Under the pieces are notes generated by a model. That model made no database searches. It saw only the letters and a list, made by a program, of their open reading frames with translations, and was not told the origin of the DNA. A program made the position numbers and the translations under genes. 64,000 nt of DNA from Eledone cirrhosa (taxonomy: Eukaryota): the NCBI GenBank assembly GCA_964016885.1, contig OZ024742.1, positions 324,198,001-324,262,000 of the forward strand. The letters are read 5' to 3'. Below, one piece after another: positions 1-59,276 of this stretch (position 1 is the stretch's first letter; every line of letters starts with the position of its first letter).

Positions 1-730
1 GAAAATTCTTGAATGAAAATTACCTATCTAATTTAATCACGTGCTTTGCATTACATCTTACATAACATATATTCATTTTATCACCACATGTCTTTCTACC
101 ATATAGGACGCCATTTTAAAAATTTTAAACACTTCTAACACTTGTAACATGCTTTTACATTCTACATGAAATATGCTTGTTTCATTGATTATATAACTCT
201 TACCTCATACATGCCTTTATTAATTGTATTAACTCTTGCATTATATAACCTTAACATTACCTGATTTCCAATGCTATGAAATCTTTTATCTATCTTATCT
301 TACATCTTTTTTTGTTTGTACTTTTTGCACATGTATTACCTTAAACAATATCTTTTTATACATAATATGCTTAATTTTTCACTTTTCACCATTGCTCCTT
401 ATAATTGTATTTTCTGAAGCATAACATTCTTTTTTATCTCCTGATTTTCTATATGATGTCTTTGACAGACAACAGTTATGTATCTACCTAAATGTTCTGA
501 AGACTAGGATTTTAATTACCTGTTTAAACATTCTCTATGCTCCGATGATTCCAGACATCCCTCTGGAAGAAACAATTGCCAGCAAATAAATGTATTAAAC
601 TAAGATTTGATTGTTTTAATATTTTGTACCTCGGCTCCGTAATACATTTGAAAACTTGCATTGAGCCTTTTCTCCTAAAGGTAATTGGCTAGTACTTAGT
701 ACTACCCTCCATATTTATAATTGTATATTA
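1..730 (+). mobile_element. Probable 3' end (pseudo-LTR) of a Penelope-like element
   Basis: AT-rich segment with an HHR-like motif at 538-584 followed by AATAAA, then a (TA)n tract; no recognisable ORF. Confidence 0.45.
538..584 (+). ncRNA. Degenerate minimal type I hammerhead ribozyme (U4C core, GCC at the cleavage triplet)
   Basis: TGCT-CCGATGA-TTCCAGA catccc TCTGGAA-GAAAC-AATT-GCC-AGCA. Confidence 0.55.
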
Positions 731-790
731 AACATATATAAGTATAAATATTATTATTATTACTATATATATATATATATATATAACATA

Positions 791-891
791 CAGGGTGTCC
801 CAAAACATTTGATACACACTTCAGCAGCATTCTAATAAATATTGCCTGTACAGGTAATCAAAGTGTGTATACATTTTTTGGGAAGACCCTA
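791..891. mobile_element. Tc1/mariner-type MITE (~100 bp)
   Basis: TIRs CAGGGTGTCCCAAAA / TTTTGGGAAGACCCT flanked by TA; related partial copy at 20185-20262. Confidence 0.7.
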
Positions 892-1407
892 TATATATAT
901 ATATATATATATATATATATATATATATATATATATATATATATATATATATATAATTATGTTTATCGAAATTGTGTGTATATTGATAATCGATGTGTGC
1001 CAAAACGGTTTATTACAGGGCATGATATTTCTCTCACAAAACAAAATAAAAACGGTCGAATTTGGAAACGAAAATCATTAATCATTGTTAACACTATCAA
1101 GCAACAAATCGGATTAATTGATTTGGGCCGCTACAGCTTCAATACCTATTGTTGTATATTTTAGTAAAATCTGTTTGCTTTCTGGCCTTATATTTCAAAT
1201 GTTCACACACGCACACGCACACGCACACACGCACACGCACACACACACACACATACACGCACACACACACACACACACACACACACACACACACACACAC
1301 ACACACACACACACACACACACACACACACATGGCATAGGGATGGCGGTGTTCTTAAGAGGTAAACGACGGAAACTGTGCGGAAACCCGTACTTATTATT
1401 TATAAAG

Positions 1408-1622
1408 GGTGGTGGATTGGCAGTATCAGTAGAGCGTCAGACACCATGCTTTGCAGCATAGAGTTATGGGCCTTTACGTTCTGAGTTCAAATCCCGCTGA
1501 GGTTAACTTTGCCTTTCATCCTTACGGGATCGATAAAAGAAACCACCAGTAATGCACTGGAGTCGATTTAATCGACTTTCCCCTCCCACCAAATTGCTAG
1601 CCTTGTGCCTATAGTAGAAATC
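1408..1622 (+). mobile_element. tRNA-derived SINE (octopus OK-like)
   Basis: GGTGGATTGGCAGTATC...GAGTTCAAATCCC (B box)...GCCTTTCATCC...GTCGATTTAATCGAC...GCCTTGTGCC. Confidence 0.85.
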
Positions 1623-1771
1623 TTTATATCTTCGCTTTTCCTTTTCTCCCATTGGGACTTTAAAACATGTAAAGTAAATTATTTGTATTTAATTGATTCT
1701 GATGAACTATTCTTGCAGGAATGGACTCTTCATTCCTTTTAGTCTGGCCAAACATTAAATGCTTTAATAAT

Positions 1772-1990
1772 GATTTCTACTTTAGGCACAAGGCCAGTAA
1801 TTTGACGGGGAGGGGGAAGTCGATTAAATCGACCCCAATGCATTACTGGTACTTTATTTTATCGATCCCGTAAGGATGAAAGGCAAAGTTGATCTCGGCG
1901 GGATTTGAACTCAGACGGTAAAGGGCTGTAACTCTATGCTGCAAAGCATGGTGTCCGACTCTCCACCGATACTGCCAATCCACCACCCCT
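1772..1990 (-). mobile_element. tRNA-derived SINE (OK-like)
   Basis: Reverse complement of the 1408-1622 family, full length. Confidence 0.85.
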
Positions 1991-2119
1991 AAACGCTTTA
2001 ATAATAATCCTTGACTAAGTTTTCTCTCTCTCTCTCTCTCTCTCTCTCTCTCTCTCTCTCTCTCTCTATCTCTCTCCCTCTCTATCTCTCTCTCTCTCTA
2101 TATATATATATATATATAT

Positions 2120-2318
2120 GATGTGAGAAAAACCATCTTAACTCTACTTTTGAAAAGCAGAAGAACTGCGAAACCGGTAAAGGAACCAAATAAATATATA
2201 TATTTTTTAAAAATAAGACTCCAGTTGCATTTTCGATTTTTTCTTTTTTTCTTTATACTTTCACTCGTGTAGGACACCTCGGTTATTTTTCATTTTGTAA
2301 AAAAACCTCACTTTCTAA
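2120..2318 (+). mobile_element. HHR-bearing repeat, U3-A8 family (motif 2147-2182), flanked by (TA)n
   Basis: Near-identical to the arms of 17889-18541; TTGAAAA-GCAG aagaa CTGC-GAAA-CCGG-TA. Confidence 0.65.
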
Positions 2319-2574
2319 TATATATATATATATATATATATATATATATATATATATATATATATATATATATATATATATATATATATATATATATATA
2401 TATATATATATATATATATAAAGCATGAGAAGAAAGAAGAATACTGCGTGGTTGCACATGGGTTACATATGATAAAAATACTCCTTCGTCAGTGATTTAT
2501 ATATATATATATATATATAAATATATATATATATATATATATATATATATATATATATATATATATATATATAT

Positions 2575-56547: not shown

Positions 56548-56782
56548 ATTAAAAATAACTTTTTTCAATGCCACTTCCATCTTTCTCTTCCCCCTCCATT
56601 CCTTCACTTCTACAATTTTCCATTCTCACTCCCCTCTCTATCACTCCTCTCTCTCTGTCCATCTCTCTCTCTCTCTCTCTCTCTCTCTCTCTCTCTCTCT
56701 CTCTCTCTCTCTCTCTCTCTCTCTCTCTCTCTCTCCTTCTCTCTCTCTCTCTCACACTATCTCTCTCTGCGGTCTATGAATA

Positions 56783-57780
56783 ATTGTTTCTACTTGCCCA
56801 AACAAGGCCAGCAATTTGAAGGAAGGGAGAAAGTCAATTAAATCAACCCCTGTCTGTTACTGGTACTATATTTTACGCATACTGTAAGGATAAAAGGCAA
56901 AGCTAACCCTGGCAAGATTTAAACACAAAAAATAAAGGGTCGTAACTATATGCCGTAAAACATGCTGTCCGATGTTCTACCGATAATGTCAATCTACCGC
57001 CCTAGAGGTCTATAAATAACATAAACAAAACTTTATGAAGTAGTAAAATCAATTGAGTTGACTCTAATAAACTTGACTGAAGTGCGGCAATTTTATAGTC
57101 ATTAGAACGTCGGTTAGATGAAACAGACCTGTCAATTCTCTCTGTCTGAGAGGGAGATCTCCCACACACTTTGGTGTGGGTGATGTCTTCTCTTGTGAAA
57201 ATGCTTTCATTATGTAGTATCGGTAGAGGGTCGGACGCCATGCTTTGAAGCATAGAGTTACCTCCCTTTATGATCTGAGTTCAAATGCCGCCGAGGTTAA
57301 CTTTGCCTTTCATCCTTACGGGGTCGATAAAATAAAGTACCACTGGGATAATTCCTGGCCTTGTACCAAAGTAGAAACAATTATGTAAAATATTCCCATT
57401 TTGCCTCATTTCTCCTCTTTTGGGGTCACTTTTTCCATGGTACTCCCTGTTTTGGGTTTTTAGAAGTTGGCAGGTCTGGATGAAAGACCTAGTTAATTGA
57501 GGTGCGATTTCAACATTCAAGGAAGAGGGACGTAATTAAATGCCACAAGTTCCTTAGTCCATCGCTCTACCGATTTTGTCATCCATATTTCTAGGTAATA
57601 TTGGTTTCTAATTTAAGCACAATACGCCAGCAATTTTTAAGGGGTGAGGTTGGAGGGGGGGGGGGGGAATTCGATTATATTGACCCCTACTACTTGACTG
57701 ATGCTTTGTATTTTCGACTTTGGCGGGCTAAAGGACAAAGCTGACCAGGGCGGGATTTGAACTCAGAATCTAAAGAACCA
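56783..57780. mobile_element. Three OK-like SINEs: 56783-57003 (-), 57215-57383 (+), 57600-57780 (-)
   Basis: Family matches of varying divergence. Confidence 0.75.
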
Positions 57781-57799
57781 GAACATATTCCACATATGT

Positions 57800-57950
57800 T
57801 CTGGTGTCCTTGACCCTAGGGCCTCCTTCCTACTCACCACCATCGACACAAAGTTGGCTACCCGCAGGTGTGAGCCTCGCGAGCTAGAATGGCTCTTCCA
57901 GCGCGTCTGCCTCCCCATCCTCCGGGGAAACACTTTCTCTATTCTGTTCT
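57800..57950 (+). pseudogene. CRE-clade 3' fragment
   Basis: GVLDPRA...CEPRELEWLFQRVCLPILRGNTFSIL. Confidence 0.75.
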
Positions 57951-58344
57951 GAGAGATGGAGAGAGACAGAGGCAGTGACAGTGGGAGTTTGGTTCCTTTT
58001 GTTCGGACCTGGTGTATATGTATATGTTTCACCGACACACACTCACACTGAGATTATTGTGTATATGGCAACTAAACAGTTAAATCATGCACACGCCTAT
58101 GCGTGTATGTAGATACAAATATCGCAAATCACTATCTCCGACGGTCTAAAGATTCTATTAATCCGCCGTCGATGATTTCTTTTATAGGCCATAAGTGTCC
58201 ATGACGTGAATAGTACAAAAGGACAAAAGAGAAAAAGAAAAGCAATTTGGGATTTACTTGATGTAAGGTCAACAATAACAATAAAGATGTTACTGAATAA
58301 ATGATGAAAACGAACAGCAATAACAATTTAAAACAACAACACAA

Positions 58345-58575
58345 TCTTCTTCTTATCGTGTCCACAAGAGTGTCAGCTACAAAGCTTGGCTAGATGTGGT
58401 TTCGCCAGAGCTTAACACATTTCTGTCCTTTCTCATTAAACTCTGCTAAGTCCAATGCTGTGCAGGGGTGTTCCAGCAGGGGGCATAGCAGGAGGTGCTG
58501 CGTAGTCTGTGGTTCGATGTCGCAGTCACACATAACGTCCCCATCTTTAAGATACTGCTAAGCCTATCCCCACCA
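58345..58575 (-). pseudogene. Ingi/Vingi-like LINE 3' end
   Basis: CDCDIEPQTTQHLLLCPLLEHPCTALDL...LW...* followed by GGACACGATAAGAAGAAG. Confidence 0.65.
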
Positions 58576-58976
58576 CAAGCAACAAAGTTGTTCGTAGATA
58601 TAGAGAGGAGTTGAGTTTGGTTTTAGTAGATACAGAGAGGAGGATTAAAAGAGATTTTTGTGTGATAGACATAGAGAGGAGGAGAATTGGTGGCCCTCTC
58701 GGGTCCCAAATAATAGGAGGGGTGGCAATAATGGGAGGGGGGGGGGGGGATGGGATCAGTAATTGTATAGTGTACGTTCGTAAATATGGGATTTCTTGCA
58801 ATGTTCTTCTTTTCTCATATAGGTATGTTTTTTTAATGTAAAATAAAATTATTATTAGATTCTCCAGCTGCTGCATCAATATGAATCACTTACAATAAAA
58901 TTTCGCCTGAGATAGATAAGCAAAATTTGATAAGCGGTTGGGGGGTGGTGATAGAAAATACCGAAGTAGAGTTTAA

Positions 58977-59114
58977 ATATTCATTTATTATGGCTAAGCC
59001 TTGTTACCCTGGAGTTCCACCTGCGCACTCACCAGAAAAGACTGGTGATCCTGTGAGTGCGGAGGTGAAACTTTAGAGTAACAAAGCTCATCAATAGCCA
59101 TAATAAATGAATAT
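58977..59114. repeat. Small foldback/MITE-like palindrome
   Basis: ATATTCATTTATTATGGCTA / TAGCCATAATAAATGAATAT, with pairing continuing inward. Confidence 0.7.
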
Positions 59115-59142
59115 ATATGTATATATATGTATATATATATAA

Positions 59143-59276
59143 AATGTTTAATATAGAAATGGCTTCTACAGGACTAGAACCGTTTCATTCGAAGGAAATC
59201 ATCAGGGGCTTTCTGGATGATTTCCTTCGAATGAAACAGCTTTACTCCTGCAGAAGCCATTTCTGTATTAAACATT
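59143..59276. repeat. Palindrome with HHR-like cores at its centre
   Basis: Minus strand CTGATGA-TTTC cttc GAAT-GAAAC; plus arm TGGATGA-TTTCCTTCGAAT-GAAAC. Confidence 0.7.

Follow-up and report, generated by a model that had tools for sequence, protein, structure and literature searches.

Paired hammerhead-bearing insertions in an Eledone cirrhosa genomic window: likely products of twin priming by Penelope-like elements

Introduction

The Hydra clade of Penelope-like elements (PLEs) is characterized by one open reading frame (ORF) that couples a reverse transcriptase (RT) to a GIY-YIG endonuclease (EN) at the C-terminus, by the RW, DKT and CxCx5C signatures, and by the absence of the CCHH motif (Craig et al., 2021; PMC8557442). 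The same study describes inverted 5'-truncated PLE copies, often with a tail at one end only and with a bias towards (TA)n. Its examples include Hydra-1_Obim of Octopus bimaculoides, which has a hammerhead ribozyme (HHR) and is noted as being without a pseudo-long terminal repeat (pLTR), and Penelope-13_HM, in which one copy is inverted and 5'-truncated and both strands bear an HHR; how such inverted structures form is named there as an open question. Here we report on a 64,000-nucleotide stretch of the Eledone cirrhosa genome (assembly GCA_964016885.1, contig OZ024742.1, positions 324,198,001 to 324,262,000 of the forward strand), hereafter the window, in which seven elements, each with two inverted HHR-bearing arms, stand within microsatellites.

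Several further systems bear on these elements. Minimal HHRs that occur in twos, one on either strand and separated by 100-700 bp, have been tied to truncated PLEs; such HHRs feature a short palindromic helix III, a U3-A8 variant and an extra base at stem II, and their activity is low and dimer-dependent (Cervera and de la Pena, 2014; PMC4209133). Dimer cleavage of HHRs is also covered in a review (PMC6765202). HHRs further occur in the metazoan retrozymes that lack long terminal repeats (non-LTR retrozymes; Cervera and de la Pena, 2020, PMC7229834; Li et al., 2026, 10.64898/2026.07.22.740005). A tail on one inverted pLTR has been reported (Arkhipova et al., 2013; PMC3846280), and inverted pLTRs are mentioned in a curation guide (PMC8969392). 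In experiments in vitro with the Poseidon element PAc of Anolis carolinensis, both strands were cut and extended, two RT start sites bounded the tail, HHR cleavage was dispensable and cDNA length tracked the template's 5' end (Frangieh et al., 2024; PMC11167929). An annotation of Octopus vulgaris counts 31 recently active Penelope-like families, and the word 'ribozyme' is absent from its main text (2026; PMC13282606). Across the open texts covered by our literature search (subscription papers being outside its scope), we found no account of PLE twin priming or of cephalopod HHR palindromes resembling miniature inverted-repeat transposable elements (MITEs).

An earlier reading of the window, the original prediction, had proposed a separate, MITE-mimicking class of non-coding fold-backs mobilized by a Penelope-like RT/GIY-YIG protein. 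The inverted-pair layout with opposite-strand ribozymes is the published footprint of PLEs and is seen in an octopus Hydra family; as an element class, there is therefore little new in it. The value of these insertions lies in their being a large natural data set on the formation of PLE inverted structures, with strict pairing of end types, free arm lengths and recurrent 5' stops. They also matter for repeat annotators, who can mislabel PLE palindromes as MITEs or foldback DNA transposons.

Results and discussion

The inverted arms and the proteins encoded upstream of them

Judged from sequence patterns, the window is likely a pile-up of PLE insertions in TA microsatellites: three Hydra-clade families, two Neptune-type families and non-coding riders, the pairs of which probably result from twin priming at two fixed start sites. 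The plan claimed by the original prediction holds for all seven elements, here assigned to families A to G: the left arm lies on the minus strand and the right arm on the plus strand, each with one HHR, and the 3' ends point outward into (TA)n, (CA)n or (CT)n, in keeping with the microsatellite targeting it had claimed. Arm-to-arm identity within the inverted pairs reaches 96-99%, and one arm per pair carries a tail of 42-137 nt. The pairs had been correctly located; because of the tail, the boundaries of the A, D and G elements move out to about 5696, 34823 and 41053. The E element ends near 36700. The motifs had been assigned to at least 6 unrelated sequence families; B and D are relatives (73% identity).

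The F element (37702-40527; HHR cores at 37799 on the minus and 40337 on the plus strand) comprises a 5'-truncated Hydra-clade PLE on the minus strand and an inverted 770-bp 3' copy on the plus strand, with a short end at 37702, a join at about 39757 and the long end at 40527. It holds a 317-aa open frame (38833-39786, minus strand) with a CxCx5C linker and a GIY-YIG EN, which is the 3' part of an 821-codon RT+EN frame. This frame is found in at least 125 places of the 3.0-Gb genome at 97-100% identity, in many of them with all 821 codons open. Its RT motifs (FDIASYY, MGASDS, YRDD) are followed by the GIY-YIG motifs IYECK/YFGST. Further marks are RLRWT (RWK-type), SDKTNN (DKT in place of DKG), the linker CNCRIKNKC and the EN pattern CNLC...E...N...CLH. 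The G element (41053-43025; cores at 41374, minus, and 42842, plus) is likewise a 5'-truncated Hydra-clade PLE on the minus strand with a short inverted arm. It carries a 137-nt tail, its right arm is split by a SINE-like (short interspersed element) repeat at 42635-42841, and it retains a weak EN remnant at 42482-42592. A genome search with its right arm gave no match; an inner G stretch did match. Following G arms upstream leads, in many of 25 loci, to an EN of Hydra type and, in extended loci, to the RT (RT and EN in L229, L230 and L174), with the CxCX5C linker CNCRNKANC and the EN pattern CRLC...CNH. The A element (5696-6534; C3-C4-variant cores at 5881, minus, and 6453, plus) is a head-to-head pair of Hydra-clade 3' untranslated region (UTR)/pLTR ends, the left arm with a tail of about 104 nt and the right arm short. 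In 3 of 30 loci (L044, L049, L051) A arms lead to the C-terminus of a Hydra-type EN about 1.4 kb upstream, with the pattern CNLC...CQH.

In all three families the EN has CxxC and CxH around a conserved E and N and no CCHH, and the HHR lies near the 3' end of elements inserted into (TA)n; the single ORF plan is seen in full in F, as RT and EN in G and as the EN C-terminus in A. By these signature motifs, F, G and A are new Hydra-clade families, with F very young. They are like the described members of the clade in ORF plan, motifs, HHR position and (TA)n target, and differ in their tails of 91-137 nt, as against 30-40 nt there (PMC8557442). F is set apart from Hydra-1_Obim, compared by eye, by its youth and its pLTR.

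The B element (17886-18541; U3-A8 cores at 18059, minus, and 18447, plus) and the D element (34823-35702; U3-A8 cores at 35011, minus, and 35556, plus) are pairs of Neptune-type PLE 3' ends, those of D young. The left arm is long and the right arm short in B, and the left arm of D carries a 42-nt tail. A CX4CxxC linker and a GIY-YIG domain (Pfam GIY-YIG, E 5e-6 in L222) lie upstream of D arms. Upstream of B arms a GIY-YIG is present in 3 of 25 loci (L126, L133, L137), 50% identical to its D-side relative. The marks on the two sides include the linker CDRPNCGIC, the pattern LIYVLTCSGC...YIGQT...H...H and, in L226, DKG and GLPKIHK. Like the Neptune/Nematis-type PLEs (PMC8557442), B has KGLKF and DKG, and both families combine the CX4CxxC linker with a CCHH-type GIY-YIG and microsatellite insertion. 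By these motifs we tentatively call B and D Neptune-type, with Nematis as the alternative.

Five of the seven elements (A, B, D, F and G) are, on this evidence, 3' UTR/pLTR ends of coding PLEs; since other copies of the same families run into GIY-YIG or RT frames, they are best seen as 5'-truncated copies of autonomous elements. The predicted link to a Penelope-like RT/GIY-YIG protein is thereby supported, and the proposed separate class of non-coding fold-backs fails for these five. The label 'non-coding' is wrong outright for F, and G retains its remnant. Of the other two elements, that of family C (25714-27807; degenerate cores at 25807, minus, and 27716, plus) is an old pair, with arms 92% alike, remaining copies at most 91% alike and both ends short; family E is taken up below.

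Pairing of long and short ends

Each family has two fixed 3' ends: a short one, and one longer by the 42-137-nt tail. Among 129 loci of five families, being best matches mostly retrieved with 1.5-kb flanks, so that partner rates are not genome estimates, 59 outward pairs were found: 54 long+short, 2 long+long, 2 short+short and 1 unclear. Long+short pairing in 54 of 58 departs strongly from one half (binomial p 3e-12). When F copies were read at 10 kb, 14 of 20 had an outward partner. The structure typical of PLE insertions recurs throughout, namely direct pLTRs, inverted 5'-truncated copies and a tail at one end, and source copies are seen as direct tandem pLTR-ORF-pLTR arrays (L198, L211, L214, L215). 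Long+short pairing and the symmetry of arm lengths are counted here; the matching passages of PMC8557442 do not hold such counts.

The remaining dimensions of the pairs vary freely. Their spans range from 267 to 7065 bp. Clean junctions could be read in 43 of 57 pairs (14 were dropped as not long+short, as hit by later insertions, or as D pairs mis-mapped through an internal palindrome). The longer arm is the long-end arm in 17 of these, the short-end arm in 17, and the two are equal in 9. Junction offsets lie between -9 and +5 in 31 of the 43; in most pairs the two arms meet directly or have a few bases in common at the junction. At the extreme, the long arm is reduced to the tail alone (L200, L032, L052, L076; in the eighth element's family, H, described below, L295, L300, L310). 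Because spans, the longer arm and junctions all vary in this way, a fixed foldback family cannot explain the pairs; the sequences indicate that every insertion forms its fold-back afresh.

The two arms of a pair also tend to share subfamily variants beyond what permuted pairs give: 23 versus 5.2 in F, 12 versus 4.0 in A and 37 versus 13.5 in H (each p 0.0005), with an excess in D as well (p 0.012). As a separate observation, in L285 (about 1400-1600) a D arm is joined directly to H sequence, which suggests template switching between PLE families within a single insertion site.

Proposed mechanism and its rivals

These patterns are consistent with the following route. The two strands of a (TA)n target would each be nicked by the GIY-YIG/RT protein and would each prime one cDNA, one per fixed start site, likely on the same RNA; we hold this single-RNA detail less firmly than twin priming itself. 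Both cDNAs would grow inward, stopping at random or running off the 5' end of the RNA, and would then be joined through a few bases of microhomology. The HHR would be carried along uncut in these copies, since it is located 45-210 nt inside the start sites. The non-coding family E, and probably H, would use the same route in trans. A comparable process is known from L1 elements, in which a single RNA templates two cDNAs, each primed at its own nick, and a 5' inversion with microhomology results. In L1 twin priming the second primer anneals internally and the two pieces barely overlap, whereas here both arms begin at fixed 3' sites and overlap extensively. If the proposed route is true, these scars record a missing step of PLE transposition.

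Several points weigh against it. For these families the mechanism is inferred from sequence patterns and from analogy with the in vitro work on Poseidon PAc, an element of another clade, in which the two start sites were not tied to inverted pairs (PMC11167929). A single RNA, a common source gene, or gene conversion between the arms at a later time could each produce the sharing of variants. This sharing is not significant in B (23 versus 17.4, with 58 discordant sites, p 0.14), G is uninformative, and H also has 41 discordant sites. Raw distances are smaller within than between pairs in F alone (p 0.002; A 0.09, B 0.17, D 0.5). The Hydra-type proteins of F and G give no match in Pfam, and in family C both ends are short and no ORF was found upstream in three extended loci of 9 kb. 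Nine pairs are symmetric and some junctions, in B and D, are palindromic, as self-priming would yield.

Self-priming, in which one strand folds back and copies itself, for instance on an antisense template, is a published proposal built on such palindromic junctions (Arkhipova et al., 2013; PMC3846280), and it accounts both for the 9 symmetric pairs among the 43 and for the variants common to both arms. A snap-back from the long site, however, cannot yield a short-end arm that is the longer of the two, as seen in 17 of 43 pairs, and gives no reason for strict long+short ends. We consider it unlikely as the general route; the symmetric pairs may arise by it, on an antisense template. The idea that whole palindromes are the mobile unit, a class of non-coding fold-backs transcribed and moved by PLE proteins, draws on family H, which is mostly a near-fixed palindrome of about 200 bp (40 of 40 in a biased set and 20 or 21 of 27 in an unbiased one), and a fixed long+short master would also yield long+short pairs. 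Against it, A, B, D, F and G run into coding PLEs and their spans are anything but fixed, and even in H the junctions vary, the intact stem I strand lies on either arm (about 10 long, about 4 short among the unbiased copies) and partners can be tail-only. It thus appears very unlikely. An origin from class II elements would make the arms terminal inverted repeats (TIRs) of MITEs or foldback DNA transposons, with HHR-like motifs by chance. The near-perfect inverted arms (96-99%) and the MITE-like look of H are what it predicts, but the termini of a pair differ by the tail in 54 of 58 cases and lengths vary 26-fold, where MITEs would have matching TIRs and a fixed length. Moreover, the arms are 3' UTRs of RT-encoding elements whose direct tandem pLTRs run into the ORF. 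The coding PLE upstream and the unequal ends refute this identity for A, B, D, F and G, as the original prediction had argued in setting the arms apart from DNA-transposon TIRs, and overall we regard it as scarcely credible. The flanks, in which target-site duplications would be sought, are microsatellites.

A puzzle raised by the original prediction also falls away for transposition. It had supposed that a transcript with a sense HHR and its antisense copy would need trans-dimerisation to cleave or would silence itself. With source copies arranged as direct pLTR-ORF-pLTR tandems, an RNA used as template can do without an antisense ribozyme; self-silencing would be confined to transcripts that read through a completed insertion. 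The original prediction had also put forward the long dsRNA as a candidate ADAR or Dicer substrate; scars of ADAR editing, in the form of an A>G excess, were not found in 23 window segments (one with few comparators).

Family E, a retrozyme-like unit

The E element (35765-36704; cores at 36061, minus, and 36458, plus) consists of a non-coding tandem unit of 418 nt inserted head to head, the left arm having 1.4 units and the long end and the right arm the short end; a separate, diverged E fragment (36742-36898, plus strand), 70% identical to the unit, had earlier been counted within it. Elsewhere the unit forms tandem arrays of 2-3.5 copies (L069, L071, L083), each with one type I HHR. Its longest Met-started frame is 58 aa, and no PLE ORF was found upstream in 30 loci with 1.5-kb flanks; an RT piece of Hydra type in L074 was judged a neighbour and not part of E. 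In size and arrays the unit falls within the range of the non-LTR retrozymes (150-450 bp), which it resembles in being non-coding, with one type I HHR per unit and tandem arrangement (PMC7229834; 10.64898/2026.07.22.740005). It is set apart from them by PLE-type long+short head-to-head ends in (TA)n, found in 13 of 14 resolved pairs counted by eye. Family E thus appears retrozyme-like, and circular RNA and cleavage are predicted for it. A search of sequencing runs for E listed no RNA run that contains it. Tail hairpins gave z-scores of -0.1 to -2.1 in six tails, with only E below -2, and are not used as support.

Family H, MITE-like hammerhead palindromes

The eighth element (59138-59333; cores at 59205, minus, and 59213, plus) is a MITE-like palindrome of about 200 bp, whose two HHR arms meet at stem I's 5' edge. 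Its left arm is short, its right arm carries a tail of about 55 nt into (CA)n, and its plus-strand core has two substitutions. In the H ribozyme, stem III is a canonical 4-bp helix, and stem I shows compensatory changes from one subfamily to another. In stem I 88.8% of cells are paired and 8 double changes fall at 2 pairs, a degree of covariation reached by 2 of 500 shuffles, with the structure read from the same sequences as tested.

One H 27-mer has 1,488 exact matches in the genome, and its reversed control none. The first 30 of these matches gave an unbiased set of 27 independent loci. In 26 of them at most 6 nt of native sequence precede the core, the longer upstream region being seen in one, and 20 or 21, scored by eye, have an inverted partner or its remnant at the core. 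In a set retrieved with the palindrome itself, and hence biased, all 40 scored matches are palindromic. Junctions differ by several bases between copies. Among incidental copies from other families, used as a control, the stop falls within 20 nt in 9 of 46. Clusters of 5' stops also occur near -40 in B (7 of 9) and near -70 in F (6 of 10), the latter open to inflation by subfamily divergence upstream. Upstream of H and of a sister subfamily, the search for an ORF found none (L316 and 30 loci, in which the upstream sequence runs into microsatellite). This sister subfamily (L317-L346), with 3,104 first-look candidates, has an upstream region of about 430 nt that runs into microsatellite, with no ORF within 1.5 kb.

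The 5' stops are most simply read as marking either a strong RT stop or a defined 5' end of the RNA at which reverse transcription runs off. More tentatively, and with somewhat less than even confidence, we propose that one RNA, two fixed start sites and two cDNAs from two nicked strands could account for these scars. Where priming falls in the 5' pLTR, both cDNAs would run off at the 5' end of the RNA, placed differently in each family (relative to the core, about -7 in H, -40 in B and -70 in F). This would lead to mass-produced MITE-mimicking hammerhead palindromes of 200-430 bp, possibly from an RNA of about 130 nt consisting of ribozyme plus tail. If true, this H RNA would be among the smallest retroelement units. 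Family H is the closest of all elements to the earlier fold-back idea. 'MITE-mimicking' describes only the outcome in H and, loosely, the non-coding E.

Hammerhead motifs of the window

A strict type I HHR descriptor gave 11 matches in the window at a score of at least 11, against a mean of 0.55 (maximum 3) in 60 block-wise dinucleotide shuffles with 250-nt blocks. The count thus stands well above shuffled sequence, the control named by the original prediction. Family-specific patterns, which catch the variant cores and long stem II missed by simple regex scans, give 23 curated motifs in 64 kb, bearing out its estimate of about 20: 2 in each of the seven named elements, 2 in H and 7 singles. 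A 24th match, at 4709, had no stems and was discarded. Among the 150 listed of 160 Rfam matches in the window at E<=1 the hammerhead is absent; the miRNA matches were disregarded as microsatellite-driven. The short self-complementary stem III it described is confirmed, the palindromes being ATGCGCAT, ACTAGT, ACCGGT, ATATATAT and ACGATCGT. With the core and stems I-III above chance, the HHR motifs of the window are, as sequence, real, and self-cleavage is predicted.

Not all motifs are intact. In C both are degenerate, and in D the conserved GAA is replaced by GCA, in both window arms as well as in all 36 D-type motifs matched in 30 loci, a trait that sets it apart from the Neptune/Nematis-type PLEs. 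Because of this replacement the D hammerhead is probably inactive, and D, a young family with copies 98-99% alike (L091-L120), seems to spread with it. The G ribozyme has a 105-nt stem II domain (41270-41374, 42842-42950; about -31 to -34 kcal/mol), kept in most of 25 motifs (L171-L195). Relative to the minimal HHRs described in metazoan PLEs (PMC4209133), the window stands out by its 23 motifs in 64 kb, by this stem II domain and by the canonical 4-bp stem III of H.

The seven single motifs comprise a plus-strand HHR related to family A (74%; 478-615, core 542); a lone long-end arm of family B (2133-2330, plus, core 2150); an arm of another repeat family (17615-17870, minus, core 17711); an old relative of family F (18815-19800, minus, core 18894); a second F relative, with a long end and an EN C-terminal piece at 21540-21734 (20485-21760, minus, core 20673); a weak motif within a repeat arm (36977-37200, minus, core 37167); and one in a repeat arm between TA tracts (43465-43727, plus, core 43580). 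At 2420-2496 and 22470-22540 a short repeat carries CTGANGA on its minus strand; no type I stems were found in this repeat, which may be a permuted ribozyme.

Additional repeats of the window

A 161-bp palindrome at 17190-17433 has a left-arm tail, a core-like CAGAAGA...GAA and the long+short design, and lies outside the counts given above. Further palindromic segments, in which no hammerhead was recognised, are present at 22240-22400, 3413-3757, 20326-20366 and 58974-59117. Two inverted copies of a SINE-like repeat of about 220 bp occupy 1407-1988, with about a dozen more in the window, including the one that splits the G right arm. The GC-rich segment at 3990-5340 looks by eye like the decayed coding region of a non-LTR retrotransposon. 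Minisatellites are found at 29113-32413 (55-bp x60), 44274-46552 (29-bp x77) and 8861-10375 (11-bp x138); at 13584-14644, 177 units of a telomere-like (AGGGTT)n repeat form a degenerate array. A direct duplication of about 3 kb, with 77% identity, spans 49158-55482.

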